This document shows, in pieces, positions 3,786 to 62,381 of a stretch of DNA of 64,000 nt. The notes below the pieces were generated by a model that did not search any database, had not been told where the DNA came from, and saw nothing but the letters and a program-made list of their open reading frames with translations. The position numbers and the translations under genes were made by a program. Each line of letters starts with the position of its first letter. The stretch's first letter is position 1. Source of the DNA: Mobilitalea sp. (GTDB lineage: Bacteria; Bacillota; Clostridia; Lachnospirales; Lachnospiraceae); NCBI GenBank assembly GCA_047606065.1, contig JASGEU010000133.1, forward strand, positions 28,905-92,904, in the 5' to 3' direction.

Positions 3786-3827
3786 TTTATTCATGACAAG
3801 TGAAACGACTTGTCGTTTCATCTTGTT
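3786..3827 (-). repeat. REP-like palindromic repeat, copy 1
   Basis: Exact reverse complement of 19559-19600 (42/42). Confidence 0.85.
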
Positions 3828-18362: not shown

Positions 18363-19559
18363 ATGTCAAAGCACGAGAAAATTGTTGAAACAATTCCTGT
18401 AGGACCTCTTGGTATTATTGCACTGGAAAGCAGTAAATCATTAGGACAACGCGTGAATGACTATTTAGTTGAATGGCGCGATGCCAGAGAGAGCGAACAT
18501 AAAGGTACGATTGCTTTTTCCGGCTATCAAAGAGATTCATTTTTATTAAAGGCTTGCTGCCCTAGATTTGGCACTGGCGAGGCAAAAGGTCAAATCAAAG
18601 AATCTGTTAGAGGTGCTGATTTGTATTTGCTGGTAGATGTAACAAATTACAGCTTAACCTATACTGTATCAGGACATCTTAATCATATGTCACCCGACGA
18701 CCATTATCAGGATTTAAAAAGAATTATTGCCGCAGTTGGTGGAAAAGCTAGAAGAATAACAGTTATTATGCCTTATCTATATGAAGGCAGACAACATAGA
18801 AGAAGCTCAAGAGAGTCTCTTGACTGTGCTCTTGCTCTTCAGGAATTGACCCAAATGGGTGTTGACAGTATCATTACCTTTGATGCTCATGATCCAAGAG
18901 TTCAAAATGCCATCCCTCTATCCAGCCTTGAAACTGTAGCTCCAAATTATCAGTTTATTAAAGCACTTCTTCATAATGTACCTGATCTTAAGCTTGACGC
19001 TGAACATATGATGATCATCAGCCCGGATGAAGGTGGAATGTCAAGAGCAGTTTATTATGCTAACGTACTGGGTCTTGATATGGGTATGTTCTATAAGAGA
19101 CGTGACTTCACTAAGATTGTGAATGGTCGTAATCCAATTGTTGCCCATGAGTTCTTAGGCACTGATATCGAAGGAAAAGATGTTTTAATCGTTGATGATA
19201 TGATTTCTTCCGGCGAAAGCGTATTGGATGTTGCTCATGAATTAAAGAAAAGAAATGCAGGCAGAATATTTGTTGCTTCCACCTTTGGCTTATTCACAAA
19301 TGGATTTGCTAAGATTGATGAAGCATACGAAAGCGGTCTGATTCACGGTATTCTTACTACAAATCTTATCTATCAGACACCTGAGCTTTTAACTAAGCCT
19401 TGGTATATCAATGTAGATATGAGCAAGTACGTTGCTTTAATTATTGACACATTAAATCATGATGATAGCATTAGTGGCCTTCTTAATCCTGTTGCAAGAA
19501 TTCAAAATATTATGAAAGAGTACAAGCAGGGCCAATATGCAATAGAATCTGCAGAATAA
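18363..19559 (+). CDS. prs: Ribose-phosphate pyrophosphokinase
   Basis: FGTGE..ESVRGAD, MPYLYEGRQH, DAHDPRVQ, SPDEGG, LIVDDMISSGES. Confidence 0.93.
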   Translation: MSKHEKIVETIPVGPLGIIALESSKSLGQRVNDYLVEWRDARESEHKGTIAFSGYQRDSFLLKACCPRFGTGEAKGQIKESVRGADLYLLVDVTNYSLTYTVSGHLNHMSPDDHYQDLKRIIAAVGGKARRITVIMPYLYEGRQHRRSSRESLDCALALQELTQMGVDSIITFDAHDPRVQNAIPLSSLETVAPNYQFIKALLHNVPDLKLDAEHMMIISPDEGGMSRAVYYANVLGLDMGMFYKRRDFTKIVNGRNPIVAHEFLGTDIEGKDVLIVDDMISSGESVLDVAHELKKRNAGRIFVASTFGLFTNGFAKIDEAYESGLIHGILTTNLIYQTPELLTKPWYINVDMSKYVALIIDTLNHDDSISGLLNPVARIQNIMKEYKQGQYAIESAE

Positions 19560-19600
19560 ACAAGATGAAACGACAAGTCGTTTCACTTGTCATGAATAAA
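19559..19600 (+). repeat. REP-like palindromic repeat, copy 2 (reference copy)
   Basis: AACAAGATGAAACGACAAGTCGTTTCACTTGTCATGAATAAA directly after the prs stop. Confidence 0.85.
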
Positions 19601-31387: not shown

Positions 31388-32764
31388 TTACTTAGACACG
31401 GTAATCTTGCTGGTTGCAGTATATTTGCCATCTTTAGTTGTAACGGTGATGGTTACGCTTCCTGCCTTCTTTGCAGTCACAACTCCAGTTGCAGAAACGG
31501 TTGCGATTGATGTATTAGAAGATTTCCAGGTAACTGCAGGATTTGTTGCATAGGAAGGTTCAATCGTAGCTTTCAGTGCAAGAGTCTTACCAACCTGTAA
31601 CTTAGCGCTAGTCTTATTTAGTTTAACGCTGCTAACCGGATAGGAAACTGTTACTTTACATTTCTTACTAATTCCAGATCCATCCTTAGTATATGCTGTG
31701 ATGGTTGCAGTTCCTTCACCGACTGCTGTAACCATACCTGTTGCTGTAACAGTAGCTACACTTGGATTTGAACTAACGAAAGTTAAGGTCTGGTTACTTG
31801 CATCTTCAGGAACAATAACAGGTGTTAAAGAGTATTTGTTACCTGGCATAATTGTAACGGACGTACTTCTTAAAGTAATATCAGTAGCTTTAATTTTTAC
31901 AAGGTTGTTCTTAACAAAGCCCATCTTATCAATAACCTTCTGACCATCTGCACTTGCAATATAATCTAAGAATGCCTGTGCTGCAGGGGTAGTTGCTTTT
32001 TTCTTGTTAGATACAAGTAAGAAAGGTCTTTTAATTGCGTAGGAACCATCTGCTACAGTATATTTGGAAGGCTCAACACCCTCAACTTTTAATGCCTTTA
32101 CCTTAGTCTCATCCATATCACCAAGTGACATGTAACCGATTGCTCCGGAGTTATTCTGTACGGAGGTCTGCATAACACCTGTACTTGCAAGTGATCCATC
32201 AAGATTTGCATCATAACCACTTGGAAGTGCTGTGCCATAATCTACTTTGAAGAAATCTTCAAAGCAACTTCTGGTACCAGAGCCAGCTTCACGTCCGAAA
32301 GGAGCAATTTTAACACTTGTGGTATAGGAACCACTAATTTGATTCCAATTTACTGCTGCAGTATCTCTGGTAAATATTTTAAATAATTGAGCAGGAGTCA
32401 CTTCATTAATTGGGTTACTTTTGTTAACAACAACTGCAAGTCCATCAAGACAAATCTGAACTTTATTTAAAACTTCTTCTTCAGCACTTGTTAACTCTCT
32501 GCTGGACATACCAAAATCAACTTTTGAATCTTTTGCATCTGTAATACCAGCGCCTGAGCCAGTAACATTCTGTTCAACAATTTTGATACCTGGATATTTT
32601 GCCATAAAAGCTTCTGCAAGAGCCTGAATTAGTGGATTAACTGAGGTTGAACCGGATAATACAACTGTTCCTGTTATTTCTGCTGCTTCAGCAGTCTTTG
32701 GTGCATATGTAATGTTTGAAAACATTACAGCTACTAACAAAATTAACGATAATAATTTCTTCAT
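31388..32764 (-). CDS. pstS: Phosphate-binding protein PstS fused to two C-terminal Ig-like (Big_2) domains
   Basis: SGSTSV, GSGAG, DFGMSSR, REAGSGTR, RPFLLV; two repeats of the W/F.SSNP.VATV...G.VTA...G.ATIT pattern. Confidence 0.88.
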   Translation of the reverse strand: MKKLLSLILLVAVMFSNITYAPKTAEAAEITGTVVLSGSTSVNPLIQALAEAFMAKYPGIKIVEQNVTGSGAGITDAKDSKVDFGMSSRELTSAEEEVLNKVQICLDGLAVVVNKSNPINEVTPAQLFKIFTRDTAAVNWNQISGSYTTSVKIAPFGREAGSGTRSCFEDFFKVDYGTALPSGYDANLDGSLASTGVMQTSVQNNSGAIGYMSLGDMDETKVKALKVEGVEPSKYTVADGSYAIKRPFLLVSNKKKATTPAAQAFLDYIASADGQKVIDKMGFVKNNLVKIKATDITLRSTSVTIMPGNKYSLTPVIVPEDASNQTLTFVSSNPSVATVTATGMVTAVGEGTATITAYTKDGSGISKKCKVTVSYPVSSVKLNKTSAKLQVGKTLALKATIEPSYATNPAVTWKSSNTSIATVSATGVVTAKKAGSVTITVTTKDGKYTATSKITVSK

Positions 32765-39546: not shown

Positions 39547-40440
39547 TTATTTTCTAATCCTGCTAAGGACACTATCATGAATAACAAACTCAACCCTTCC
39601 CATATACCCTGGTGCAACTTCATACTCATCGAAAGCAATCACAAGCTGATTGTCAGTATTAAAGTAAAAGTTTTGATCGGGTTTAATTGCCTCAAAGTTA
39701 TCAAGTCCATCCTCCGTATCAATGAAGTACATTTTGTCTTCCTTCTCTATTTGATCTCTCATTTGCTCCTTAATATTCTCACTGATGACTCCGACATAAT
39801 CTGCATCTGATTTGAACAAATCACTTAGGGTCGCTATTTTACCAGTCTGTTTATTAAAATGATAGAACTTACTATACTCATAGCCGCTTGCCTGTACCTC
39901 AAGAACATTAATTCTAAGGGTGAACCATTCCTTGGTATCGGTAACCACCTCCCAGGTTACATCAAGTTCCTTATGCAGATCCGTAGAATCTCCAACTTCT
40001 TTTTCAAACTGTTTCACCAATAAATCAGTGTAGTCAACAATCTCTTGGTTGGTCTCATCAATAGCATTTGTATTGGTACCCTCTTCCTTTGTGCTATCTA
40101 TATCTGTTTCTGCAATTTGAGGTATCTCCACATTCGCTTTACTATTTCCATTATCAAACACGTATTTATCAATGGTTACCACACGTACAATACTGCCCAG
40201 GATTGGTATATCCCCCATGGCTTCCGCAATTTTGCTATTGGTATTTGGTAATACTACTAAGAGAAGTGCTGCTGCCGCCACAGCACTGCCACCTACCCTG
40301 AACTTATTTATTTTACTTCTGCGTTTTTTCTCGATTTTTGCTAAACTTATGCTCTTATGTACTTCTTCCAGCCCTGCTTTTGGAGCTTTCACTGCGTTAT
40401 ACTTTTCCTTTAATTCATATATTTTTCTTTTATTTTGCAT
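39547..40440 (-). CDS. RsiV-like anti-sigma factor (DUF4163/DUF3298)
   Basis: Basic N-terminus, TM, IPILGSIVRVVT, C-terminal FYF..DNQLVIAFDEYEVAPGYMG. Confidence 0.8.
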   Translation of the reverse strand: MQNKRKIYELKEKYNAVKAPKAGLEEVHKSISLAKIEKKRRSKINKFRVGGSAVAAAALLLVVLPNTNSKIAEAMGDIPILGSIVRVVTIDKYVFDNGNSKANVEIPQIAETDIDSTKEEGTNTNAIDETNQEIVDYTDLLVKQFEKEVGDSTDLHKELDVTWEVVTDTKEWFTLRINVLEVQASGYEYSKFYHFNKQTGKIATLSDLFKSDADYVGVISENIKEQMRDQIEKEDKMYFIDTEDGLDNFEAIKPDQNFYFNTDNQLVIAFDEYEVAPGYMGRVEFVIHDSVLSRIRK

Positions 40441-40451
40441 CTTTAATCTCC

Positions 40452-40934
40452 TTATTCTTCTAAACTTATTTGTAATTTTTTCAGTGTTCGATACATTTTG
40501 CTTTTTACTGTATTTAACTTTTCACCCGTCATGTCTGCTATTTCTTCCAACGTATACTCTTCGTAAAATTTTAAAATTATAATTGTCTTATCCGTAGCAT
40601 CCAAGTTATCTATCGCTTTCTCCAAATCATAATCTACATAATGGTCCGTCTGTGAAATATCTATAGCGGATATGTCATAGGAGTCTTTTTTGTGCTTCTT
40701 AATAAAAGCCAATGCTTCGTTAATCATAATTCGATAGATCCAGGTGTTTGCATAATCAGGATTTTTCAAGGTTTCACTTTTAAGGATTGCTTTGTAGGCG
40801 CCTTCTTGAACTATGTCCATAGCATCCGTCTCATTATGCACATAACTGTAAGCCAATCGATAATATTTGTCATAATTCCTAATTAAGTAATTCTCAATTA
40901 GGCTCTCCATAATATTCTTCATTTTAATATTCAT
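40452..40934 (-). CDS. ECF sigma factor (SigV-like)
   Basis: YYRLAYSYV.NE.DAMDIVQE..TWIYRIMIN..TVKSKMYR; directly upstream of the RsiV-like gene. Confidence 0.85.
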   Translation of the reverse strand: MNIKMKNIMESLIENYLIRNYDKYYRLAYSYVHNETDAMDIVQEGAYKAILKSETLKNPDYANTWIYRIMINEALAFIKKHKKDSYDISAIDISQTDHYVDYDLEKAIDNLDATDKTIIILKFYEEYTLEEIADMTGEKLNTVKSKMYRTLKKLQISLEE

Positions 40935-42499: not shown

Positions 42500-43051
42500 A
42501 TGGAAGATTGTACAATCATAAAAAAAATGAAGCTAAATAAAGAGAAAGCTCTTGAGGCTTTGATGCAACGCTACACTTCTTATGTTGTTACTATAATTAT
42601 GAGAATTGGCGGCCAACTTTTATCCGCCCAGGATGTGGAGGAAATTGCATCAGATGTATTTTATGCCGTATGGAAAAGGCGAGAAAGCTTAATTGAGGCA
42701 GATAGTCTAAAACCCTACATTGCACAGATAGCAAGAAATATGACAAAAACACGATTGACTCAAACCCGAGAAGAAGAACCTTTGGAAGAGGACATTCTTG
42801 TCCTCATTTCTAACGATATTGATGAACAGCTCATACAGAAGGAACAATTGGAATTTCTACGTGAAACCATTTTACGGTTTGAATATCCTGATAAGGATAT
42901 CTTACTGGCTTATTATTTTTGGAATTATAAATTAGCTGATATTGCAAAGTTGTTTGAATTGCCGCTCTCCACGATTAAATCAAAACTTTATCGTGGTCGT
43001 AGCGAGCTTGTAAAAAGATTTGAAAAAGGAGGTTATCATTATGAAGCATAA
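42500..43051 (+). CDS. ECF sigma factor
   Basis: Region 2 (DVEEIASDVF..W..LKPYIAQIARN) and region 4 (STIKSKLYRGR). Confidence 0.85.
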   Translation: MEDCTIIKKMKLNKEKALEALMQRYTSYVVTIIMRIGGQLLSAQDVEEIASDVFYAVWKRRESLIEADSLKPYIAQIARNMTKTRLTQTREEEPLEEDILVLISNDIDEQLIQKEQLEFLRETILRFEYPDKDILLAYYFWNYKLADIAKLFELPLSTIKSKLYRGRSELVKRFEKGGYHYEA

Positions 43052-44129
43052 AATTAATTTGCACCAATTATTTGTTAAACTGGATCTGGAAGACATGCCT
43101 TTAGAAGACAGCACCTCTCCCTCCCACCAGATAAATATGAAACGCATACGCCAATTAACTATGGAAAAAGTGCAAAAAGATAAGAAATCAATATTACCCT
43201 TTCAAAGGCACCTATTTAAAGCATCTCTTGCAGCCTGTATTATATTTTGCATCAGCGGTGTAACCGTATTTGCTGCGACCAATGAAACCGTGCGCCAAAC
43301 CATCAGTGAATTACTTGGTATTTCACAAACTGAAATACTTACAGTGGGCAAAAGTATAGAAAGTAAAGATTATAAGCTAACTGTTGACGAAATTGTTTGT
43401 GATTCCTACACCGGTATTGTAACAATATCCGTGGAAGCTTTAAGTTCAAATGCTAAAGAAACCTTTATAACTGATAATATTATTGAGAAATTAGGCCATC
43501 TGGGTTCTGTTGGTTACGGTCTTAGAGAACTGGAAGAATTACAGACGGAATATACCAGATGTTTTTCCTTTTCCTTTAATATAGGGAATGTACGACATAA
43601 AGCTGATGGATTAAATTTTTCTATGGAAGGTATTTCGAAAGAAATAAAAATACCAATCACACAGACCTTAGAATTAACTGAATTAGATGTTAACATACCA
43701 ACAGCGGAGGGTTATTCTGTGTCGTACCAGAAGCTATGCTATTCGGAACTTGGCTTTACTCTATTGGGTAAAATAGAAAATCAGGATTTTAATATTGAAA
43801 ATTTCTTAATATTGTTTGAGTCTATGGATGGCAGTAACAGTGAATTTTATCAGTACCATGCAGAACAGGATAATTTGATAAACGATCCCAGCGTGAACAC
43901 CGCTCAAACACAGGCTAGCAGCAAAGGCATTGAAACAACTGTCAGTAGCCCTACTGAAGAGTCCCCCAAAGACAATTCAATTATCGAATTTGATGACAAA
44001 TGGTTTTCAGGAGGTGGGGAATCTACTGATTCGGATAAAGTAACTTCTATCTTCAGCTTTTCTAAAAAAATGGATTGGTCTACGGTGAAATCTATTACGA
44101 TTAATGGAACAACGATCAGAGTTAATTAG
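43041..44129 (+). CDS. Anti-sigma factor (DUF4179-like), single TM
   Basis: Overlaps the sigma stop; TM ending VFAA; extracytoplasmic beta-rich domain. Confidence 0.65.
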   Translation: MKHKINLHQLFVKLDLEDMPLEDSTSPSHQINMKRIRQLTMEKVQKDKKSILPFQRHLFKASLAACIIFCISGVTVFAATNETVRQTISELLGISQTEILTVGKSIESKDYKLTVDEIVCDSYTGIVTISVEALSSNAKETFITDNIIEKLGHLGSVGYGLRELEELQTEYTRCFSFSFNIGNVRHKADGLNFSMEGISKEIKIPITQTLELTELDVNIPTAEGYSVSYQKLCYSELGFTLLGKIENQDFNIENFLILFESMDGSNSEFYQYHAEQDNLINDPSVNTAQTQASSKGIETTVSSPTEESPKDNSIIEFDDKWFSGGGESTDSDKVTSIFSFSKKMDWSTVKSITINGTTIRVN

Positions 44130-44449
44130 TATGTACCTAATCTTGTATTAAAACAGAATCTTATGAGCCTTTATCTCTCCTTGAGATAAGGGCTTTTTAT
44201 CATAAAAATCTGGATTATTCGTCCGATTCTTTAAAGAGATATGCCTTACTTTTTATTGTTACTGCAAGAAATCAGATTTTATATTGAATAACTCACCATT
44301 CTGATTTAGTATATATATGATGATTTTCTAAGTTATGGTAAAATTATTTCCAGTTTATATAAAGCAGAGAAAGCATAATGTAATTATTTTATGCAGAAAT
44401 ATTTTACTAACACTTAAATTTATGCTTTTCGTAACAATGGAGGATTACT

Positions 44450-46159
44450 ATGTCTTACAAAGATCTTCATAAATTTATAGAAGAGTTAGAGCAGCACGGT
44501 GAGCTAAAGCGAATAAGTACGGAGGTTTCCTCTGATCTTGAAATTACAGAGATTACAGATCGAATATCCAAAGCTCATGGACCAGCTTTGTTATTTGAAA
44601 AGGTACGTGGTTCCAAGTATCCTGTACTAATTAACGCAATGGGCAGTTATAAGCGTATGAGTATGGGGCTGGGTGTTAAGGAGTTGGACGAGCTTGGTGC
44701 TTTGATAACTGACTACTTAAATTTAGGCAACTACTTATCCATAAAGAAATTAATAAAAAGTATACCTCGTTTATTACGACTATTGTATGTATTCCCTTCC
44801 AAATCAAGAAGAAAAGGGAAGTGTCAAGAGGTCATAGAACGAGAGGTGGATTTGGACACCCTTCCTGTTCTACAATGCTGGCCGGAGGATGCAGGTAAAT
44901 TCGTAACTCTGCCCCTGGTCTTTACAAAGGATATCAAAACCAAGAGACAGAACGTAGGAATGTATCGACTGCAAATTCTTAATAAGACCAGTACCGGTAT
45001 GCACTGGCATAAGCATAAGGATGGTTCTGAAATCTATAAGGGCTATCAGGAGTCAGGTAAGAGAATGCCCGTATCAGTAGCACTGGGCTGTGATCCTGCA
45101 ATTACCTATTCCTCTACCGCACCCCTTCCCCCTATGCTGGATGAAATGATGTTAGCAGGCTGGTTGCGTAAATCCAGAGTCAAAATGGTAAAATGTATCA
45201 CCAATGATATCTATGTGCCTGCAAATGCTGAATTCATTTTAGAAGGTTATGTGGACCCCACAGAGGAACTGGTATTGGAAGGTCCCTTTGGCGATCACAC
45301 CGGATATTATTCTCTGGCTGATTACTATCCAAGATTTCACGTCACCTGTATTACCCATAGAAAAGATGCTATTTATCCTGCTACCGTAGTTGGAAAACCT
45401 CCCATGGAGGATTGTTATATGGCAAAGGCAACCGAGCGAATCTTCCTACCCATGCTTCGTATGATAATCCCTGAATTAGTGGATATGAACTTACCGCTTG
45501 AGGGAGTCTTCCATAACTGCGCGATTGTATCCATTAAGACGAAATACCCCGGTGCTGCTATTAAGACAATGAACAGTATCTGGGGCATGGGGCAAATGAT
45601 GTACACTAAATTGATCATTGTCGTGGATGACTCTGTTAATGTACAGGATATCAGGCAAGTGCGTGAAGCTGTACTTTCACATGTAATTGCGGACAAAAGC
45701 CTCGTAATAGCAGAAGGTCCTTTGGACGCTCTGGATCATTCCTCCAATGAAGCCTTATATGGTTACCGCCTTGGGGTGGATGCAACCAGCAAAAACACTT
45801 TGCAAAAAGAAAACACAGTAACTAACACCTATCATATTATGTCCATATGCAAGGAACGTCCCGGACAAGGGAAAGAGGTTTTATCCGACTATATGGATAC
45901 TCATTCTGATAAGTTTGTGATTGCCGTTGACGAAGAGGTTAATCCTTTGGACTTGTCTACGGTAATGTGGAAGGTCTTTAATAATATAGATGCAAAGAGA
46001 GATCTCCTTATCCTTGATGGCAAAATCGGTATTGACGCTACTAAGAAATGGCGAGAAGAAGGCATTACCAGGGACTGGCCAAACGACATCGAAATGTCAC
46101 AGGAGATAAAGCAGCAGGTTAACGAAAGATGGAGGCAATATGGTATTGACATTGACTAA
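44450..46159 (+). CDS. UbiD-family prFMN-dependent decarboxylase, menaquinone (MqnL-like) subtype
   Basis: NVGMYRLQ, MHWHKHKDG, EGPFGDHTGYY, ATVVGKPPMED, duplicated C-terminal domain ending GIDATKKW..G..R.WP..I.M. Confidence 0.85.
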   Translation: MSYKDLHKFIEELEQHGELKRISTEVSSDLEITEITDRISKAHGPALLFEKVRGSKYPVLINAMGSYKRMSMGLGVKELDELGALITDYLNLGNYLSIKKLIKSIPRLLRLLYVFPSKSRRKGKCQEVIEREVDLDTLPVLQCWPEDAGKFVTLPLVFTKDIKTKRQNVGMYRLQILNKTSTGMHWHKHKDGSEIYKGYQESGKRMPVSVALGCDPAITYSSTAPLPPMLDEMMLAGWLRKSRVKMVKCITNDIYVPANAEFILEGYVDPTEELVLEGPFGDHTGYYSLADYYPRFHVTCITHRKDAIYPATVVGKPPMEDCYMAKATERIFLPMLRMIIPELVDMNLPLEGVFHNCAIVSIKTKYPGAAIKTMNSIWGMGQMMYTKLIIVVDDSVNVQDIRQVREAVLSHVIADKSLVIAEGPLDALDHSSNEALYGYRLGVDATSKNTLQKENTVTNTYHIMSICKERPGQGKEVLSDYMDTHSDKFVIAVDEEVNPLDLSTVMWKVFNNIDAKRDLLILDGKIGIDATKKWREEGITRDWPNDIEMSQEIKQQVNERWRQYGIDID

Positions 46160-47018
46160 ATTTATTCACAAAATCATGGATTATGGAAAGCTGGTTATGT
46201 TCTCCCATACCATATTTTCATTAAGTTTTGCTCTCTTGTCTATGCTGTTGGCAGCAGGAGGGCTTCCAAAGTTAGAGACCTTATTTTGGATTATGATCTG
46301 TCTTTTAGGTGCCAGAACTGGTGCCAATGCAATTAATCGTGTTATTGATGCGGAAATAGATGCTAAGAATGCGAGAACCGCAAACCGCCAGATACCCAAA
46401 GGTGAGTTTAAGAAAAAGGAAGTCCTTGTCTTTACTGCCTTCTGTTTTCTGCTCATGCTGGTTGGTGCATATCAATTAAATATGATTTGTTTCGTCCTAT
46501 CACCTGTTGCGTTATTTTTAATGATTATCTACTCTTATTGCAAGCGCTTTACGTTCCTTTGCCACTTGGTCTTAGGTATTACATGTGCCTGTGCGCCTGT
46601 TGGAGCCTGGCTTGCTGTAACTGGCAAATTAAGCCTTCTTCCTCTGTTTATGGGTGCAGCCAATACTCTGTGGGTTGCAGGCTTTGATATCATTTATGGG
46701 TCACAGGATTATGACTTTGATAAAGCAAATCATCTGCATTCCATACCGGTCAAATTCGGTGTTAAGGATGCCCTAAGAATCGCTATGCTATTTCATATTA
46801 TAACTGTACTTTGTCTCGTAGTAATTGGTTTACTGGCAGCCCAGCTGGGAGTAATCTACCTGATAGGAATTCTGATTATTTGCTGTTTATTTGTAGTTGA
46901 ATACCGTTTGGTTTCGCCCACAAATCTAACAAATGTTAATATTGCCTCCTATAGTATTAACCAGTTAATCAGCATTGTTCTACTAATCAGCGGTTTACTT
47001 GATGCTTTTATCTTATAA
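46140..47018 (+). CDS. UbiA-family aromatic prenyltransferase (MqnP-like)
   Basis: FSHTIFSL.FA, GARTGANAINRVIDAEIDAKNART.NR.IP, YSYCKRF, GFDIIYG.QD..FD. Confidence 0.88.
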   Translation: MVLTLTKFIHKIMDYGKLVMFSHTIFSLSFALLSMLLAAGGLPKLETLFWIMICLLGARTGANAINRVIDAEIDAKNARTANRQIPKGEFKKKEVLVFTAFCFLLMLVGAYQLNMICFVLSPVALFLMIIYSYCKRFTFLCHLVLGITCACAPVGAWLAVTGKLSLLPLFMGAANTLWVAGFDIIYGSQDYDFDKANHLHSIPVKFGVKDALRIAMLFHIITVLCLVVIGLLAAQLGVIYLIGILIICCLFVVEYRLVSPTNLTNVNIASYSINQLISIVLLISGLLDAFIL

Positions 47019-47056
47019 ATAATAATGTAATAATAATGAATGAGGTGTATACTACA

Positions 47057-48001
47057 ATGTTAAAAAAACTACAATTGCTTTTTCTATTTATCTTACTTGC
47101 TTTATTTTTAATCGGTTGCAAGGGGAAAGATGCTCAAACTCTTTCCGAAAAAACTGTTATTCGTATTGGAATGATGTCCTCTTACGATGTTATTCCTTAT
47201 GTTATGATTAATGAACTTGGTCTTGCCGATCAGTATCAGCTTGATTTACAGCTCGAGGTATTTACTTCTGCCAAAGACCGAGATGCGGCACTTCTTGCCG
47301 GAGAACTTGATGGGGTGCTGACGGATTACATCGGCGTATGCATGTATCAGAATGCTGATTTTGATGTAAGAATTACGGGTATTACCGATGGAGACTATGT
47401 TCTGGTAGCCGGCAAAAACAGCGGAATTACCTCTATTAATGATATTGCAGGGCGTAGCATTGCCATATCACAGAATACCTTAATTGATTACACCCTGGAT
47501 CAAATCCTCGAAAAGAATTCTATGGAAAGCGATGCTGTCGTTAAGGAAATCGTACCACGTATCCCGGACAGAGTAGAATTACTTCGAAACGACCAAATTG
47601 ATCTTGGACTTTTACCAGAACCCTTTGCTTCTATTGCTTTAAATGATGGTGCCGTATACTTAGGCAGTGCCAACGATATTAATCTGTATCCTGCTGTATC
47701 TGCTTTCACCAAAGAATTTTTGGATTTTAAATCTGAAGCTGTTAAGAATTTATACAAGGCTTATAATGAGGCTGTTGAATACCTTAACAAAACCGATATC
47801 TCCAACTATGAGGATACTGTAATTAAGACAGTAGGTTACCCTGCCGAGATGAAGGGTCAGATAACGATAGAGCCTTTCCGCACCAGTGAGCTCCCTCCGA
47901 TGGAGGATGTAGCTTCCGCCATCACCTGGGCAAGTAATAAGGAGTTATGCAGCTCTGACTTAACCTATGATAATCTCGTATTTGATGTATATTCTAAATA
48001 A
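47057..48001 (+). CDS. ABC transporter substrate-binding lipoprotein (NMT1/SsuA-like fold)
   Basis: Lipobox LIGC; F.SAKDRDAALLAGELDG; LPEPFAS. Confidence 0.8.
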   Translation: MLKKLQLLFLFILLALFLIGCKGKDAQTLSEKTVIRIGMMSSYDVIPYVMINELGLADQYQLDLQLEVFTSAKDRDAALLAGELDGVLTDYIGVCMYQNADFDVRITGITDGDYVLVAGKNSGITSINDIAGRSIAISQNTLIDYTLDQILEKNSMESDAVVKEIVPRIPDRVELLRNDQIDLGLLPEPFASIALNDGAVYLGSANDINLYPAVSAFTKEFLDFKSEAVKNLYKAYNEAVEYLNKTDISNYEDTVIKTVGYPAEMKGQITIEPFRTSELPPMEDVASAITWASNKELCSSDLTYDNLVFDVYSK

Positions 48002-48078
48002 TTTGTAACTGTTCAGAACCAAGCAGAATATTTAATAATTTAGCCCTGAAAGCTTGCTTTCTAAGGATAATTTTTATA

Positions 48079-48118
48079 CAAGGCGAAACGACAATTCGTT
48101 TCACTTTTCATGAGTATT
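48079..48118 (+). repeat. REP-like repeat, copy 5
   Basis: 33/40 identity to copy 2. Confidence 0.75.
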
Positions 48119-48213
48119 CCTGTTTGGCGAGAGCCGAATAACGAGGAAACCTGTGGTTTTCGAACTTGGTTTTGAATAGTTTTTCATAATATAAGAATGA
48201 AAGGTGGACAACT

Positions 48214-48966
48214 ATGCTTATTATCAATGATTTGTCTATTCGATATAAATCCAAGCAATCAACTGACCTGGTAATCAGCCATCTTTCCTTTCAGTTAAAG
48301 AAGGGTGAGTCACTGGCAATCCTTGGACCTTCCGGCTGTGGCAAATCCACTTTGATAAATGCCCTTGCTGGATCTCTATCGATAGAAAGCGGCACCATTG
48401 AATATGCTGCCTTGGAACAGCTCTGCCCTTTAAAACAAAAAGTACATAAAATAGGACTAATCCCACAAAACTATGGCTTACTGCCTTGGAAGACTGTTAA
48501 AGAAAATTGTGAACTGCCCTTAAAAATCCGCAAGGAAAATTATAATGGTGAAGGTAACAAGGAAATGTACCAAATATACGAATCGCTTAACATTCAACAT
48601 ATCCTTGGCAAATATCCAAAGGAATTAAGCGGGGGGCAACTCCAAAGAACCGCTATTGCAAGAGCTTTTCTTCTAAAGCCTGATTTACTGTTAATGGATG
48701 AGCCTTTTTCTGCCCTTGATGCTATCACCAGAGAAGAAGCCAGAGAATTGTTTTTAAAAGTATGGGAACATCAAAAACCTACCACCCTTCTTGTAACTCA
48801 CAGCATAGAGGAAGCCCTTTATTTGGGGAATACCATTTATGTTATGGCTCCACAGGGCGGTGATATCAAATATCAGATGAACAATCCCTATTTTGGAGAG
48901 TTACATCCGAATCATATGGATTATCTCATGGCAAAGCAAATACTTCGGGAGCAATTGATAGCCTAA
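48214..48966 (+). CDS. ABC transporter ATPase (SsuB/TauB-like)
   Basis: [40 protein letters not shown]. Confidence 0.9.
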   Translation: MLIINDLSIRYKSKQSTDLVISHLSFQLKKGESLAILGPSGCGKSTLINALAGSLSIESGTIEYAALEQLCPLKQKVHKIGLIPQNYGLLPWKTVKENCELPLKIRKENYNGEGNKEMYQIYESLNIQHILGKYPKELSGGQLQRTAIARAFLLKPDLLLMDEPFSALDAITREEARELFLKVWEHQKPTTLLVTHSIEEALYLGNTIYVMAPQGGDIKYQMNNPYFGELHPNHMDYLMAKQILREQLIA

Positions 48967-48982
48967 GAGAGGACGGAAGCCT

Positions 48983-49744
48983 TTGAATAAATTACTAAAG
49001 CAATGTATGATCTTTCTACAGGGATTTTTGTCGGTGAATTTAATCTGGTTAATTGCTTATCTATTCACCGACACCACTGTAATTCCTAACCCCCTCCGGG
49101 TTTATCAAAGCTTTCCTGTGGTTTTGAAAGATCACATGTTAATACATATCTTGTACAGTTTAAGAAGAATTGGAGCTGGGTTAGCCCTGTCCCTAATCAT
49201 TGGCATCCCTCTTGGAATACTTCTAGCCTATTCAAGGAAAGCCAATCGAATTTTATATCCGTTGATCTATTTTAGTTATCCTATTCCTAAGACAGCCTTA
49301 CTTCCTATTGCAATGCTGCTGCTTGGTATGAGGGATGGATCAAAAGTAGTAATTATGGTGCTGGTTCTTGTATTTCAAGTTATCATATCTGTTCGTGACA
49401 GCATTCAGACCATTGATAAATCCATGTACCAGGTTATAAAAAGTGTGGGGGCAAATAAGCTCTCAATCATTCACCATGTTACTATTCCTGCCATTCTACC
49501 CAATTTACTAACCAGCCTTCGGGTATCTCTTGGAGCTGCGCTGTCCATACTATTCTTTGTAGAAGGTTATGGAACAACCTATGGAATCGGCTACTATATT
49601 CAGGATGCCTGGTCCAGAATTAATTATATTGAAATGTATATTGGAATCATCACAATTGCCATAATTGGTTTTTTCTTATTTGTGGCTGTTGATTATCTTG
49701 CCTATCGTATGTGTAAATGGAATTATACTACGGATAACAATTAG
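48983..49744 (+). CDS. ABC transporter permease (SsuC/TauC-like)
   Basis: YPIPKTALLPI, HV.IPAILP.LLTSLR, GIGYYI..AW. Confidence 0.88.
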   Translation: MNKLLKQCMIFLQGFLSVNLIWLIAYLFTDTTVIPNPLRVYQSFPVVLKDHMLIHILYSLRRIGAGLALSLIIGIPLGILLAYSRKANRILYPLIYFSYPIPKTALLPIAMLLLGMRDGSKVVIMVLVLVFQVIISVRDSIQTIDKSMYQVIKSVGANKLSIIHHVTIPAILPNLLTSLRVSLGAALSILFFVEGYGTTYGIGYYIQDAWSRINYIEMYIGIITIAIIGFFLFVAVDYLAYRMCKWNYTTDNN

Positions 49745-49806
49745 CAATAATTTTTACTCTTATTTTAAAACCAAAAACCTTTAGTGATAGAAAGAGGAAC
49801 TTACCC

Positions 49807-50403
49807 ATGCAGAATAACCTGACTGATACTATGAAAAAGAAATTGGTCGTTGGAATGAGTGGTGCCAGCGGCGCAGTCCTTACCATAAAACTTCTTCAAA
49901 TGATGAAAACTTACCCCGATTGGGAAACTCATCTGGTAATTTCAAAGGGTGCCCAAATGACAATAGATCAAGAGACAACCTATCGTCTCACTGAAATAGA
50001 GTCTATGGCTGATTTTTCATATGATATTAATGATTATGGTGCAAAGATAGCCAGTGGCACCTTTCAAACGGAAGGCATGGTTATTATTCCCTGCAGCATG
50101 AAGACTATGGCAGGTATTGCCTGCGGTTATTCAGATAACTTACTTTTGCGTGCAGCAGATGTAACCATTAAAGAGCGTAGAAAACTGGTGCTTGTCCCAA
50201 GGGAAAGTCCTCTTAGCACTATCCATTTAAGAAATATGCTGACCGTAGCAGAAGCCGGAGCATTTATAATGCCTCCTGTAGCACCTTATTATACCCAGCT
50301 TGACAGCCTCGAGGATATGAATGTACAAATTGTTGGAAAAATTCTGGATAAGTTTCATATCACACTAAAGGATTTTCAGCGTTGGGGAGAACCTATTAAT
50401 TAA
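49807..50403 (+). CDS. ubiX: Flavin prenyltransferase
   Basis: VGMSGASG, ASG, PCSMKT, RAADVTIKERRKLVLVPRESPLS.IHL.NM. Confidence 0.93.
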   Translation: MQNNLTDTMKKKLVVGMSGASGAVLTIKLLQMMKTYPDWETHLVISKGAQMTIDQETTYRLTEIESMADFSYDINDYGAKIASGTFQTEGMVIIPCSMKTMAGIACGYSDNLLLRAADVTIKERRKLVLVPRESPLSTIHLRNMLTVAEAGAFIMPPVAPYYTQLDSLEDMNVQIVGKILDKFHITLKDFQRWGEPIN

Positions 50404-52406: not shown

Positions 52407-52916
52407 TTGGATAATCGAATCTTAAAGCAGCTATATGAGCAGTTCGGCACTGAACTTTATCTCTATCTCTACTCCCTTTGTCATAATCACAGCCTGGCAG
52501 AAGACTTAAGGCAGGAAACTTTTTTAAAAGCACTTTTGGCTTTACCAGATTATCATACCAACATGCGGGCATGGCTTTACCTTGTGGCACGAAATCTTTA
52601 TTTTAACCGCAGAAATAAAGATAAACGGCTCATATCTTTGGAGGGAGTGTCTCATGAGATTATGCATCTTGATGGGGCAGACGATATTCTCAATCGCTTT
52701 ATAGCGAAAAGACAAATTCGTATGTTGTACCATTCATTATCCATATTGCCTCTACAAAAACGTGAAATTTTGATGATGCAGTATTTTGGAGATATGACTC
52801 AACGAGAAATTGCAGCTATCTTGCATTTAACACCGGAGAATGTGCGTGTATTATCGTATCGAGCAAAAAAAGAGCTAAAAAAATATATGGAGGCGAACGG
52901 ATATGACTTATCGTGA
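52407..52916 (+). CDS. ECF sigma factor
   Basis: LYLYLYSLC.NH..AEDL.QETF.KA..AWLY.VARN..NVRVL.YRAK. Confidence 0.88.
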   Translation: MDNRILKQLYEQFGTELYLYLYSLCHNHSLAEDLRQETFLKALLALPDYHTNMRAWLYLVARNLYFNRRNKDKRLISLEGVSHEIMHLDGADDILNRFIAKRQIRMLYHSLSILPLQKREILMMQYFGDMTQREIAAILHLTPENVRVLSYRAKKELKKYMEANGYDLS

Positions 52917-54147
52917 ACTTTTGGATTTATACAAGAGAAATGAATTGGAATTGGATAAGAAGCATCAGGTTGAGGCAGATATTGAAAAACACGAGGCAAT
53001 CAGCGATTATCTATATGAAAAAGATGATATTCCTGCCTTGTCTGGAATCCATGATGAGCAAGGACGTGTTGCTGATGAGTCTTTAGAAAGTTCTGAACAG
53101 GCACGCCGTTTTATGAAAATGGTAAATCAGTCAATCCGCAGAGCATTTGTGAAAATGGGATTTATCACTTCTGTAGTTGCATTAGTTATTTTATTATTAA
53201 TACAATTTGTTTTACCACAAGTAATTTCAATCTTTTATTATGACCCTGGTAAAGAGGTTGCAGGTAATACCAATCAGATGAGCCTGGATATCGCCATATA
53301 TACTGAATTGCTGGTTCCCCAGTACATTAGATTTAATGCAATAGTGGAAGATTTAGGTTATGGTAACTATGATTTTTGCATCACGCAGAACTCAACCTAT
53401 AACGGTGTATTTACCAATGTATCCGGGCGAATCGAACGGGGTCGAATGATTAAGTATGACGCAAATGCACTTACCCGTCCGACACCAAATGCCTTTGCTT
53501 ATAGTCTTGCTTATGAAAATCCCTCTCGCTCTTTGAGTGAATTGGAGGCTGCCAGTCAAGTCAGCATGAGCGCTGCCGGATTTTCCACCGAGAATTTATC
53601 AAGCCTAAATGCTTTATCTGATGACACTAAATATGTTGCCTACGTAACACTGGAAAAGCCGATGGGATATCTCCCATTTATTCACTTTTTAAAAAATAAT
53701 TCAATTAATAATGCCTGGTGTGCAGTAAGCACTAATTGGAATCCGACAACTTCGACTATGTTATCTACCGAAAACATTGGATTTCAATATGGCCTAAGCT
53801 CTTATAATATCAAATGGGATAAAGAACGCTACCCTGACCTGATATTGGATGATTATGATATATTATCTGCGGATCCTGAACTCTATTTAAAACAGATGCT
53901 TGAGAATCTTAATAGTGAAGATTTTATGCAGAAGCACTTCATTAGTATGCTGCGCTATATGTCAGAGCAAAAGAATTTTCTTCAAATGATGGATACAGAC
54001 CCAAATATGTTTACTGATGCAGCTGACTATGTAGAAGAAAACGGATTACTTATTTATGGGTTTTCAATTACTACAGATAAGGAGCAATTATTGAAATTGG
54101 CTGAACAGGAAGATGTATTTATTATCTATACGCAGCCCTTACGGTAG
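52903..54147 (+). CDS. Anti-sigma factor with N- and C-terminal regulator domains
   Basis: Overlaps the sigma gene; single TM; C-terminal F..HF.SML.Y..IYG motif seen in this anti-sigma class. Confidence 0.65.
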   Translation: MTYRELLDLYKRNELELDKKHQVEADIEKHEAISDYLYEKDDIPALSGIHDEQGRVADESLESSEQARRFMKMVNQSIRRAFVKMGFITSVVALVILLLIQFVLPQVISIFYYDPGKEVAGNTNQMSLDIAIYTELLVPQYIRFNAIVEDLGYGNYDFCITQNSTYNGVFTNVSGRIERGRMIKYDANALTRPTPNAFAYSLAYENPSRSLSELEAASQVSMSAAGFSTENLSSLNALSDDTKYVAYVTLEKPMGYLPFIHFLKNNSINNAWCAVSTNWNPTTSTMLSTENIGFQYGLSSYNIKWDKERYPDLILDDYDILSADPELYLKQMLENLNSEDFMQKHFISMLRYMSEQKNFLQMMDTDPNMFTDAADYVEENGLLIYGFSITTDKEQLLKLAEQEDVFIIYTQPLR

Positions 54148-54387: not shown

Positions 54388-54876
54388 ATGAAACAAAGAA
54401 AGACTCAATTTCTAACTGAGGCTGCAATTATCGCGGCCATCTATACCGTACTGGTATTCATTTTTCAGTGGTCCAGCTTTGGACCTGTACAATTTCGTAT
54501 TGCAGAGGCTTTGACAATACTTCCGTATTTCACTCCTGCTGCTATACCCGGTGTTACCATTGGATGCTTTTTAAGTGCTGTTTTCGCAGGCGCAGACGTC
54601 CTTGATATGGTATTCGGTTCATTAGCAACTTTAGTTGCCGCACTTCTTTCCTATTCCCTAAGACGCTATAAATACCTGGTTCCTATTCCTCCTATCGTAG
54701 TAAATGCCTTAGTTATTCCTTGGGTATTGAAGGCAGCTTACGGAGAAGCACAGCCAATTCCGCTCATGATGCTTTCTGTAGGAGCAGGTCAGTTATTAGC
54801 AGCAGGCGTACTAGGTATGATTTTATTATTAGCACTAGAGCGTGTTCGTCACATAATATTTAGAAACAATAAATAG
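54388..54876 (+). CDS. queT: QueT queuosine-precursor transporter (ECF S-component)
   Basis: AAIIAAIYTVL..FGPVQFRIAEALTILP..G.TIGCF; downstream of a preQ1 riboswitch. Confidence 0.9.
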   Translation: MKQRKTQFLTEAAIIAAIYTVLVFIFQWSSFGPVQFRIAEALTILPYFTPAAIPGVTIGCFLSAVFAGADVLDMVFGSLATLVAALLSYSLRRYKYLVPIPPIVVNALVIPWVLKAAYGEAQPIPLMMLSVGAGQLLAAGVLGMILLLALERVRHIIFRNNK

Positions 54877-60215: not shown

Positions 60216-61499
60216 CTATTTCTTAATATCCAGTTTTGATAATTCATCCGAAAGCTTATGTATATAATCCCTAAGAATGTGAATACAATCCTGTTCATGT
60301 GCAACGCCACGAACGATATCTTCAGCCAACGCTTTACAGGAGGGTGCTCCGCAGGAACCGCAATCGAGACCCGGGAACTTCTGACAAAGCTCCTCAACTC
60401 TTGCCATATTGGCAATACTCTCTTTCATATTCTTTCCTATATTAAAAACAGGCTCATAATGCACTCCGTTTGTCCAATAAGTGCTTTCGTCCTTTACTTG
60501 TTTTAAATGGTTACAAGCAACAGGTAAATATTTTCTAAGTCGTTTTAACTTCACCTTGGCAAGATACGGATTTTCTACTGTTAGAACTCCTCCCACACAG
60601 CCGCCTGCACAGGCATTTAGTTCTATGAACTCCAATTGGTCAAACTTATCATCTTCCAGATCCTCTAAGATTCGAATGACATTCTCTATTCCATCTGCCG
60701 CCAGGTAACTATCGGAAAATAAGCCGCCTGCTTCTCCACCTGTTACTCCCCAGCCAATTCCTATTCGTCCGGAATTACTTAGTTCTTCTGCATCATCAAT
60801 ACTTTGCTTCATAAGCGGCAGTAAGATCGGATAGACTTCCTTCATGGCTAAGACTCCATCAATTTCACTATGATCCACCCCAATCGCAGATTTTACAGCT
60901 GTAACTTTTGCAGGACAGGGGGATATAAAAATAATCCCGATCTTCTCCCTTGGGAGTCCCGTTTTTTCCATAGCAATATCCTTAGCTTTTGAGGCTGCCA
61001 GGTCAACCGGGGCGCAGATCGGTAGCAATTGTTCTATTAAATTGGGAAATCTTACTTGAATCAGACGTACTACGGAGGGACAGGCGGTACTAATGATTGG
61101 CCATTTCTCTCTATGCTCGGAGACATAAACTCTAGAAGCTTCAGACACTAATTCGGCAGCGCTGCTTACCTCATAAACATCATCAAACCCCATTTTTCTA
61201 AGGGCTGTTAATATAATATTTACATCTTCCAAGTGATTAAACTGACCATATAGTGAAGGCGGCGGTAATGCCACCGTATATTCAAACTTCTTCATGATAT
61301 CAGGTGAATCATAGGTTGCTTCTTTTGCATGATGAGGGCAGATTCGAATACATTCTCCGCAATCAATACAGAACTCTTTTGTAATTACAGCTTTTCCATT
61401 CCTTACTCTAATTGCCTGGGTCGGACAACGTTTGATACAGTTGATACAGCCCATACATAAGTCTTCCTTAAGGTGTACTGAAGTAAAAAACTCCCCCAT
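60216..61499 (-). CDS. Sensory-type [FeFe]-hydrogenase-like protein (2x4Fe-4S, H-domain, C-terminal FeS)
   Basis: Two CxxCxxCxxxC motifs; H-cluster motifs STACP, SPCPAK, ELNACAGGCVGG; C-terminal LDCGSCGAPSC..C. Confidence 0.8.
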   Translation of the reverse strand: MGEFFTSVHLKEDLCMGCINCIKRCPTQAIRVRNGKAVITKEFCIDCGECIRICPHHAKEATYDSPDIMKKFEYTVALPPPSLYGQFNHLEDVNIILTALRKMGFDDVYEVSSAAELVSEASRVYVSEHREKWPIISTACPSVVRLIQVRFPNLIEQLLPICAPVDLAASKAKDIAMEKTGLPREKIGIIFISPCPAKVTAVKSAIGVDHSEIDGVLAMKEVYPILLPLMKQSIDDAEELSNSGRIGIGWGVTGGEAGGLFSDSYLAADGIENVIRILEDLEDDKFDQLEFIELNACAGGCVGGVLTVENPYLAKVKLKRLRKYLPVACNHLKQVKDESTYWTNGVHYEPVFNIGKNMKESIANMARVEELCQKFPGLDCGSCGAPSCKALAEDIVRGVAHEQDCIHILRDYIHKLSDELSKLDIKK

Positions 61500-61575
61500 G
61501 CTCTTACCTCCCTATCCTACACAATACTGTAGCTTCTTCCTTGGAATTGTTTGTTATAAATTTAACTATCTAAAA

Positions 61576-62031
61576 TCAATTACTGGTAACTTCCTCGGGC
61601 TCCATCATTCTGACCTTCATCGTAACTGTTGTTCCAACCCCCAGAACCGTATCGATTTCCATTTCATCGGAATATTTTTTCATATTGGGCAGCCCCATTC
61701 CTGCTCCAAAACCCAAGGAGCGGATATTATCAGGAGCAGTGGAATAACCAACTTGCATTGCAAGTTCAACATCTGCAATTCCCGGTCCTTGATCCTTTAG
61801 AATCATCTCAATTTCATCCGGTGAAACAATGACATCTATTTTACCTCCATAAGCATGGATTACCATGTTGATTTCACCTTCATACATAGCAATTGCAACT
61901 TTACGGATAATTTCAGGCTTTACACCCATTTTCTTTAATTTACTTTTCACACTGCTGGAGGCCTCACCCGCCCTTGTAAAATCATTTGCAGGGACCTCAT
62001 AGGACATTATAATTGTATTTTCGTCGCTCAC
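61576..62031 (-). CDS. RsbT/SpoIIAB-like Ser/Thr kinase (anti-sigma regulatory factor)
   Basis: YEGEINMVIHA.GG, DQGPGI.D, GYSTA, GFGAGMGLPN. Confidence 0.85.
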   Translation of the reverse strand: MSDENTIIMSYEVPANDFTRAGEASSSVKSKLKKMGVKPEIIRKVAIAMYEGEINMVIHAYGGKIDVIVSPDEIEMILKDQGPGIADVELAMQVGYSTAPDNIRSLGFGAGMGLPNMKKYSDEMEIDTVLGVGTTVTMKVRMMEPEEVTSN

Positions 62032-62381
62032 TTATAATCCGGACCTCCTCGAAGACCATTTTCATACAACAATCCGCACGCCGAGAACATCCGATGTCCG
62101 GAAGTCAATAAAACAATCTCTTTCTCTTTTGCCAATTGTATCATTATTTCATCCGGATATTTTCCACGGACAAAAACGACACAAATAATATCCATCATTT
62201 CACACGTTCGAATTACCTGTGGATTACACAGACCGGTAAGTAACACCGATTGATCCTTCATAAATGCCAGCACATCACTCATCATATCAGAACCACAGGC
62301 TGTATGAACTTCTTTGTCCTTCCACTCTTCACCGACAACCCATTTTGCTTCCAGTATGTCTCTTACATCCGCAATTGTCAT
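62028..62381 (-). CDS. DRTGG-domain protein
   Basis: ACGSDMMSDVL..LLTGL.N.QVIRT..M.D...VFVRGK. Confidence 0.8.
   Translation of the reverse strand: MTIADVRDILEAKWVVGEEWKDKEVHTACGSDMMSDVLAFMKDQSVLLTGLCNPQVIRTCEMMDIICVVFVRGKYPDEIMIQLAKEKEIVLLTSGHRMFSACGLLYENGLRGGPDYK

Follow-up and report, generated by a model that had tools for sequence, protein, structure and literature searches.

The 64,000-nucleotide stretch of Mobilitalea sp. DNA analysed here (contig JASGEU010000133.1; referred to in its full length as the window) carries at positions 44450–50403 of its forward (+) strand a cluster of six co-directional genes, in which enzymes of the families that act late in quinone biosynthesis surround an ABC importer. 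The first gene encodes an MqnL-type member of the UbiD family of decarboxylases, which depend on prenylated flavin mononucleotide (prFMN) as a cofactor (44450–46159; 569 amino acids; Pfam, TIGR03701). Its stop is overlapped by 20 nucleotides by the start of a gene for an MqnP-like membrane aromatic prenyltransferase of the UbiA family (46140–47018; 292 amino acids; Pfam UbiA, TIGR01475). Further downstream lie the genes for a lipoprotein substrate-binding protein of a NitT/TauT-type importer (47036–48001; the start used in the databases, 47057, yields 314 amino acids), an ABC transporter ATP-binding protein (48214–48966; 250 amino acids), a TauC/SsuC-like permease (48983–49744; 253 amino acids) and, finally, a UbiX flavin prenyltransferase, or prFMN synthase, of the VdcB/PRK06029-like lineage (49807–50403; 198 amino acids). 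All six open reading frames (ORFs), like the overlap between UbiD and UbiA, were found where the initial annotation had placed them.

A strong terminator-like hairpin upstream of the cluster (44165–44195, +), composed of a 13-bp stem and a T run, ends the preceding anti-sigma gene and delimits the transcription unit of the cluster on its 5' side. Within the cluster, the genes for the binding protein and the ATPase are separated by a 213-bp spacer with a hairpin repeat of about 40 nucleotides (48075–48116, +), which is found at two other intergenic sites of the window (3788–3826, −, and 19557–19598, +). The copy in the spacer is part of a segment of about 118 bp that is missing from a closely related metagenome-assembled genome (MAG; L002), and a role as a stabiliser or attenuator within the operon is possible. 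The window had been described initially as lacking both early men or mqn genes and a methyltransferase, and two lines of evidence bear this out: a Pfam survey covering nearly all ORFs of at least 90 amino acids detected none of them in the window, nor any other quinone-related gene elsewhere in its 64 kb, and a tblastn search of the window with MqnA, MqnC, MqnD, MqnE, MenB and MenG gave no match. The remainder has the content of an ordinary Bacillota chromosome, including mfd, pth, murC, dnaB/dnaI, prs, a PBP gene, pst and agr-type genes and ECF (extracytoplasmic function) sigma factors. At the gathering threshold, no Rfam family matched the window, and there is no riboswitch for FMN, thiamine pyrophosphate (TPP) or preQ1, so that the ligand of the importer finds no clue in a riboswitch.

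UbiD comprises the Pfam domains UbiD_N and UbiD as well as UbiD_C in two stretches and reaches 641 bits on TIGR03701, the model of the SCO4490/MqnL-type 'menaquinone biosynthesis decarboxylase' (cutoff 496), while failing the models for E. coli UbiD (NF008175; 419 bits, cutoff 788) and VdcC (254 bits, cutoff 650). Its last 120 residues form a degenerate repeat of the C-terminal domain just before them (residues 450–569 against 322–449; E=7e-6), so that the previously noted duplication proves real, if partial. This extension is shared by Campylobacter coli MqnL, which aligns with residues 6–553 and is 35% identical over the full length. Among solved structures, E. coli UbiD is the closest (366 bits); its alignment with the protein includes the motifs EGPFGDHTGYY and RQNxGxYR and stops at residue 448. 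UbiA retains both Asp-rich motifs, as seen in an alignment with ApUbiA (4OD4), and is 38.6% identical to the MqnP protein of Alistipes and 35% identical to that of C. coli. However, it passes only the generic model TIGR01475 and fails the three NCBIfam models for MqnP (289, 236 and 215 bits against cutoffs of 430, 420 and 375) as well as the proteobacterial UbiA model TIGR01474 (126 bits, cutoff 275). The original designation of the enzymes as MqnL- and MqnP-like is thus apt in that both are closer to these proteins than to proteobacterial UbiD and UbiA. UbiX, in turn, is not particularly close to MqnM (35–36% identity to the Alistipes and C. coli proteins); its nearest relatives are PRK06029 (252 bits, cutoff 188) and VdcB, whose cutoff it fails (255 bits, cutoff 290).

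The binding protein possesses a signal peptide and a lipobox (LFLIGC) whose cysteine is invariant in 22 homologues, and it weakly matches the Pfam families NMT1_2, NlpA and NMT1. This lipoprotein of the NMT1/SsuA fold, the BPD_transp_1 permease and the ABC ATPase together constitute a NitT/TauT-type importer. Two models of characterized transporters are both failed (SsuA_fam, 81 bits, cutoff 163; PRK11553, 20 bits, cutoff 299), and a sequence search of the PDB with the binding-protein profile returned nothing at E<=0.01. An AlphaFold2 model (mean predicted local distance difference test score, pLDDT, 86.8) has SsuA, TauA, Thi5/NMT1, PqqT, ThiY and thiamine-binding proteins as its top Foldseek matches, at 12–18% identity, including PqqT with bound pyrroloquinoline quinone (PQQ). 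Some of the fold matches are presumably MqnA, although the depositors' title reads only 'enzyme of biosynthetic pathway'. The importer thus shares its fold and three-component architecture with SsuABC, TauABC, ThiXYZ and the PqqT system, the last of which demonstrates that a carboxylated quinone cofactor is a possible cargo of this fold. It differs from all of them in its low sequence identity, in scores below the curated cutoffs and in its genetic partners, which are quinone enzymes instead of sulfur, thiamine or PQQ genes. Judged by the model, the fold class is one of carriers of small anionic or heteroaromatic ligands, including PQQ; an aromatic carboxylate would be a plausible ligand, with homology leaving its identity unspecified. 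Two arginines are invariant across the family. Close homologues number in the hundreds (62–96% identity), occurring in Herbinix, Anaerocolumna, Mobilitalea, Konateibacter and many MAGs, and their database annotations are all generic. Beyond these, the family is graded, with an exhaustive search of representatives retrieving 159 of them at E<=1e-30 and identities ranging from 49% to about 28%.

To place the cluster in its wider context, we scanned one genome per GTDB species with the binding-protein profile and obtained 80 first-tier loci, which belong to Lachnospiraceae, Oscillospiraceae (Caproiciproducens, Caproicibacter), Sedimentibacter, Eubacteriaceae (Alkalibacter), Acetivibrio and the Hungatella/Lacrimispora group. 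In all 80 of these species-level loci, the binding protein is encoded between UbiD-UbiA and ATPase-permease on the same strand, and each core gene that appears to be absent falls at the end of a contig. At least 80 species of anaerobic Clostridia share the module, in an arrangement far beyond chance. The identity matrices of the five core proteins correlate with each other (Spearman 0.59–0.87; 49 complete loci), and this co-divergence indicates that enzymes and transporter are inherited as a unit. The sole variable member is UbiX, which comes in two lineages and two positions: in 49 loci, the gene for an MqnM-like form (47% identical to Alistipes MqnM) separates UbiA from the binding protein, and in 22 loci, the window among them, a VdcB/PRK06029-like form is encoded 3' of the permease gene. 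This non-orthologous replacement at two positions points to selection for co-expression with the decarboxylase. Five loci have no UbiX in the cluster and still keep the transporter. The idea of an importer embedded among only late enzymes is therefore borne out as far as the importer is concerned, which is fixed in the entire set, but 'only late enzymes' is incomplete, since a peptidase U32-type oxidase and an aminotransferase accompany the cluster in certain relatives (see below).

Clustering of all ORFs that flank the 80 loci uncovered a link to extracellular electron transfer (EET). In 21 loci, a recurrent EET-type gene set adjoins the cluster, nearly always directly upstream of UbiD (with L045 as the exception). 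It encodes a type-II NADH dehydrogenase (Ndh2) of about 675 amino acids with a C-terminal membrane domain, a polyprenyl diphosphate synthase, a repeat lipoprotein without a Pfam match (PplA-like), a flavin transferase of the ApbE family (FmnB), a NusG_II-domain protein together with a Hpre_diP_synt_I membrane protein (EetA/EetB-like) and, in the Oscillospiraceae-type loci, a MenA-like 1,4-dihydroxy-2-naphthoate (DHNA) prenyltransferase. The complete genome of Lacrimispora sp. HJ-01 provides a compact example, with ten genes in the order ndh2-dmkB-pplA-fmnB-ubiD-ubiA-ubiX-SBP-ATPase-permease (SBP denoting the substrate-binding protein) and gaps of at most 36 nucleotides. The locus for flavin-based EET (FLEET) in Listeria is said to consist of Ndh2, DmkB, PplA, FmnB, EetA, EetB and DmkA, and we take the gene set beside the 21 loci to be of this type. 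Apart from this gene content, the module shares with the FLEET systems of Listeria and Lactiplantibacillus the general concept of a fermenter that builds a quinone for EET from a cross-fed head group (DHNA). In contrast to these systems, however, the related loci have UbiA and UbiD/UbiX join or replace the MenA-type DmkA, and the cluster encodes an importer, none being known for FLEET organisms. Moreover, none of the Ndh2, PplA-like, FmnB/ApbE, DmkB and EetA/EetB proteins is encoded in the 64-kb window. In 10 of the 21 EET-linked loci (Hungatella/Lacrimispora and Caproicibacter types), the fetched region contains no MenA/DmkA-type gene, which leaves UbiA, UbiD and UbiX as the sole candidates there for supplying the quinone required by Ndh2. 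The linkage to Ndh2 and EET genes is the strongest evidence that the product of the module is a membrane electron carrier.

Collectively, these results lead us to favour, with moderate confidence, the view that the cluster is the core of an operon conserved among Clostridia and serves to produce a polyprenylated quinol-type membrane electron carrier from an imported aromatic carboxylic acid. The surface-anchored lipoprotein would capture the acid outside the cell and deliver it to the permease and the ATPase for import. The UbiA/MqnP-like enzyme would then add a polyprenyl chain at the membrane, and the UbiD/MqnL-like enzyme would decarboxylate the product with the help of prFMN supplied by UbiX. 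The resulting carrier may serve the type-II NADH dehydrogenase and flavin-based EET or other quinone-dependent reactions. This proposal builds on the identities of the genes, the intact catalytic motifs, the strict synteny, the co-divergence of the proteins and the fusion of the cluster to genes for Ndh2, EET and polyprenyl synthesis, from which we infer the direction and substrate of transport, the order of the steps and the nature of the product.

The same observations bear on the notion that the product is no quinone at all but a prenylated phenol, another membrane lipid or a secondary metabolite, or that the enzymes detoxify or catabolize plant phenolic acids. The window does lack a hydroxylase and a methyltransferase, many hosts come from plant-biomass-degrading habitats (as inferred from the names of the organisms), and small LpdD/VdcD-like genes are found near the cluster in two related loci (L083 and L091). 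The cluster also resembles the VdcBCD/LpdBCD systems in its pairing of a UbiD-type with a UbiX-type protein, the UbiX of the window being nearest to VdcB. However, UbiD scores far below the VdcC cutoff, neither the window nor any first-tier locus has a VdcD/LpdD-like gene, and the translational coupling of UbiD to an integral-membrane UbiA argues for a lipid product. Since the fusion to Ndh2, polyprenyl synthase and EET genes, seen in 22 loci, additionally argues for an electron carrier, we consider a non-quinone product improbable.

If the module makes a quinone, its ring could be either synthesized internally or acquired from the environment. No homologue of MqnA, MqnD, MqnE, MenB or MenG was detected in the window and 91 loci, that is, in about 1.6 Mb of neighbourhoods from roughly 90 genomes, and neither chorismate lyase nor another head-group gene recurs near the cluster. 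In a published survey (Ravcheev and Thiele, 2016; PMC4746308), every genome of Lachnospiraceae and Clostridium has a score of zero for each quinone gene, including those of the mqn and men sets; its Table S1 includes none of the genera that carry the cluster, and all of its Clostridia score zero. The retention of the importer in 80 of 80 species would be hard to explain if the precursor were made within the cell. Taken together, this indirect evidence favours precursor salvage over internal synthesis. There is precedent for such a lifestyle: in Lactiplantibacillus plantarum and further fermenters, the same EET system depends on DHNA obtained by cross-feeding, whose uptake was described in 2023 as 'yet to be identified', and papers from 2016, 2017 and 2023 treat importers for quinone precursors as unknown.

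These findings also make it quite unlikely that the cluster is merely the late part (mqnL-mqnP-mqnM) of an ordinary futalosine pathway, with mqnA–E located elsewhere and the importer as an optional scavenging add-on. The late futalosine enzymes MqnP, MqnL and MqnM were predicted in Streptomyces (SCO4491, SCO4490 and SCO4492) and Campylobacter (Ravcheev and Thiele, 2016; PMC4746308). The cluster contains the same three enzyme families, its UbiD passes the MqnL equivalog model and has the C. coli-type extension, its UbiA is 35–39% identical to MqnP and most related loci have an MqnM-like UbiX; furthermore, mqn genes are often scattered in genomes. The order UbiD-UbiA-UbiX matches that of SCO4490–4492. 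On the other hand, UbiA fails all three MqnP models, the UbiX of the window is of the other lineage, an ABC importer is embedded among the enzymes, and the U32 oxidase and aminotransferase of certain relatives are foreign to this route. An optional accessory would, moreover, not persist in 80 of 80 species, and both the absence of MqnA, MqnD, MqnE and MenG from the neighbourhoods and the zero scores of the surveyed Lachnospiraceae and Clostridium genomes argue against a complete pathway.

A sister clade of the cluster provides further clues to the chemistry involved. It was identified by profiling binding-protein homologues of 35–49% identity and inspecting their neighbourhoods. These second-tier loci contain orthologous clusters (UbiD, UbiA and binding protein 67%, 68% and 51% identical to those of the window; 656 bits for the UbiD orthologue on TIGR03701) and stem from Geosporobacter ferrireducens, Anaerosolibacter, Clostridium folliculivorans, Clostridium sp. 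JN-9, Clostridia bacterium BRH_c25 and oral taxon 876. At least in C. folliculivorans and BRH_c25, UbiD comprises 482 amino acids, without the duplication. Besides these genes, five of the six loci encode a class-III aminotransferase and a protein of about 645 amino acids that has two Peptidase_U32 domains. This tandem U32 protein is nearest to TrhP and UbiU/UbiV, hydroxylases that depend on prephenate and not on oxygen, with scores far below their cutoffs, and the aminotransferase is ArgD-like but likewise below all cutoffs. The Fe-S motif CX6CX15CX3C, which is diagnostic of U32 oxidases according to a 2024 review, is intact in all ten U32 copies examined, one of them free-standing and the copy in L091 not included. 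The gene pair is part of the operon in L037 (3980–7118), L081 (12507–15740), L085 (3326–6770), L086 (12558–15833), L087 (10001–13230) and L091 (6001–9229) and adjoins the transporter genes in L082 (6770–9985) and L084 (12506–15725). In the first-tier organism L037, it lies directly upstream of UbiD, and in another one (L087), it opens an eight-gene cluster of the order U32-aminotransferase-UbiD (566 amino acids)-UbiA-UbiX-SBP-ATPase-permease. Free-standing copies occur in Clostridium sp. KNHs205, an Anaerocolumna MAG and one other MAG (L088–L090), and the pair represents a conserved two-gene unit in Clostridia (7893 matches at E<=1e-30). Neither gene is present in the window, and both are absent from 78 of the 80 first-tier loci within flanks of up to 10 kb on each side, with L037 containing the pair and L017 a weak aminotransferase-like match.

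C. difficile failed as a negative control for the distribution of the U32-aminotransferase pair because L091, a low-GC contig labelled Clostridioides difficile (JBDLCU010000017.1, GCA_039713385.1), carries the whole system, with genes for an Ndh2-like protein, polyprenyl synthase, U32 protein, aminotransferase, UbiD, UbiA, UbiX and binding protein in this order. Since two papers list C. difficile strains without ubiA, ubiD and ubiX, the species label is doubtful; mislabelling, an assembly error or acquisition of the locus by this strain may account for the finding. Two other peculiarities concern the second tier. In G. ferrireducens, the position of UbiD is taken by a UbiD_N fragment of 135 amino acids (L081, 8136–8543), which may be a pseudogene, next to full-length UbiA, UbiX and transporter genes. 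In C. folliculivorans, a tocopherol-cyclase-like gene (PF14249; L085, 242–1261, −) is located 2 kb from the U32-aminotransferase-UbiD-UbiA cluster; neither this gene nor a MerR-methyltransferase fusion near the same locus recurs in other loci, and both were discarded as potential partners.

The function of the U32-aminotransferase pair fits no described quinone pathway and implies further ring chemistry in the lineages concerned. The aminotransferase could aminate the ring to give a rhodoquinone-like product, convert the imported compound before prenylation or handle a by-product of prephenate. A parallel is the E. coli Ubi route, in which prenylation by UbiA is followed by prFMN-dependent decarboxylation (UbiD/UbiX) and oxygen-independent hydroxylation involves UbiU-UbiV(-UbiT); the tandem U32 protein, with its intact Fe-S motif, has UbiU/UbiV among its nearest relatives. 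However, the clostridial proteins score far below the equivalog cutoffs for UbiD, UbiA, UbiU and UbiV, their U32 domains are fused, UbiT, UbiG, UbiE and UbiB were not seen, and the hosts are strictly anaerobic Bacillota outside the known range of ubiquinone. For each of the canonical futalosine, ubiquinone and FLEET systems, defining features were tested and found to be lacking, so that the cluster is a member of none of them.

The U32-aminotransferase pair also offers a foothold for a different view of the importer, in which the enzymes do make a quinone, but the ring stems from the cell's own shikimate pathway and the transporter takes up riboflavin/FMN, to serve prFMN synthesis and the flavinylation of EET proteins, or else a sulfonated or amino compound that the aminotransferase and the U32 protein would process. 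Among the members of the NitT/TauT/NMT1 fold class are binders of taurine, sulfonates and pyrimidines as well as RibY, a riboflavin binder, and class-III aminotransferases include taurine:pyruvate aminotransferase. U32 oxidases use prephenate, such that the shikimate pathway must be active, and in L082 and L084, the binding protein is found together with the U32-aminotransferase pair but without UbiA/UbiD. These points are offset by several observations. The window contains no FMN or TPP riboswitch, the synteny of the transporter tracks UbiD-UbiA rather than UbiX, as evident from the five loci that keep it without UbiX, 78 of the 80 first-tier loci lack aminotransferase and U32 genes in their flanks, and no chorismate lyase or other head-group gene recurs nearby. 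We therefore regard the import of a compound other than the ring as unlikely.

The choice between candidate head groups is finely divided. In favour of 1,4-dihydroxy-6-naphthoate, UbiD has the MqnL equivalog score and the MqnL-type extension, and most loci have an MqnM-like UbiX; in addition, demethylmenaquinone as the product needs neither a methyltransferase nor a hydroxylase, both of which are missing from the Hungatella-type EET operons. A hydroxybenzoate-type head group is suggested by the recurrent U32 oxidase, which would be required for turning a prenylphenol into a quinol but not for demethylmenaquinone, as well as by the sub-cutoff scores of UbiA for MqnP and the plant-biomass habitats of many hosts. 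As the conversion of 1,4-dihydroxy-6-naphthoate to demethylmenaquinone requires neither the U32 protein nor the aminotransferase, there is at least as good a case for a head group that is aminated or of the hydroxybenzoate type. Overall, we tentatively place hydroxybenzoate-type compounds first, as a distinct possibility short of a probable assignment, and give somewhat less weight to 1,4-dihydroxy-6-naphthoate or another naphthoate and, equally, to any other head group. The late-step quinone salvage proposed initially is thus supported in so far as the importer is tied to a prenyl-quinone module, but a simple path from dihydroxynaphthoate to demethylmenaquinone leaves no place for the U32 protein and the aminotransferase. 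It is tempting to speculate, although we deem it unlikely, that the importer, UbiA, UbiD/UbiX, the fused U32 protein and the aminotransferase form an oxygen-independent clostridial route to an isoprenoid quinone, maybe an (aminated) benzoquinone for Ndh2-driven EET, of which the window would hold the six-gene core.

Several considerations weigh against the proposed import of an aromatic acid for the synthesis of a quinol-type carrier. The loci were selected through the binding protein, so that the perfect association measured is the probability of finding UbiD-UbiA given the binding protein (equal to 1) and not the converse. The binding protein is just 12–18% identical to any solved relative, and known ligands of its family extend to nitrate, taurine, sulfonates, pyrimidines of thiamine and, reportedly, riboflavin. 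In L082 and L084, no UbiA/UbiD is encoded within 10 kb of the binding protein, a context in which the U32-aminotransferase pair may be the closest partner of the transporter. Moreover, genes for Ndh2, EET and polyprenyl synthase are absent from the 64-kb window, and the literature searched contains no chemically demonstrated quinone in these organisms.

Other parts of the window contain features of separate interest. Three pairs of ECF sigma and anti-sigma genes flank the cluster (39547–40934, −; 42500–44129, +; 52407–54147, +); their conservation is limited to the nearest MAGs (L001 and L002), which makes a regulatory role unlikely. An agr-type quorum-sensing set with a LytTR response regulator, a GHKL histidine kinase and AgrB is located at 833–3510, and a gene for the queuosine-precursor transporter QueT at 54388–54876 (+), again without a preQ1 riboswitch at the Rfam gathering threshold. 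An [FeFe]-hydrogenase-like protein with ferredoxin domains (60216–62381, −) is encoded next to a small HATPase protein and a DRTGG-domain protein, in a group that resembles a sensory hydrogenase module. Finally, a phosphate-type binding protein (PBP_like_2) with two C-terminal Big_2 domains (31388–32764, −) is encoded upstream of two permease genes and an ABC ATPase gene, making it pst-like by context.

The searchable literature contains no description of the module, its link to EET loci or any importer of a quinone precursor. None of the papers found on pplA/ndh2-based EET also mentions UbiD, and a survey of flavinylation (PMC8238504) makes no mention of UbiA, UbiD, UbiX or ABC transporters. 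Similarly, quinones are not part of Rodionov 2019, a 2024 survey of vitamins does not include the taxa concerned, and a literature search for the futalosine pathway in Lachnospiraceae returned only irrelevant microbiome papers. The combination of MqnL/MqnP-type late-step quinone enzymes with a dedicated ABC importer, joined in some lineages by a U32 protein and an aminotransferase, appears to be new.

Fermentative Clostridia are generally regarded as quinone-free; nonetheless, genes for quinone-dependent electron export are present in many of them. Gut and food bacteria are known to rely on quinone precursors provided by their neighbours, and the cluster represents a concrete, widely conserved and testable candidate for an importer of such precursors, alongside the enzymes expected to process what it imports. 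Should the U32 oxidase and the aminotransferase act in the same pathway, the module would reveal a new anaerobic quinone chemistry outside the Proteobacteria.

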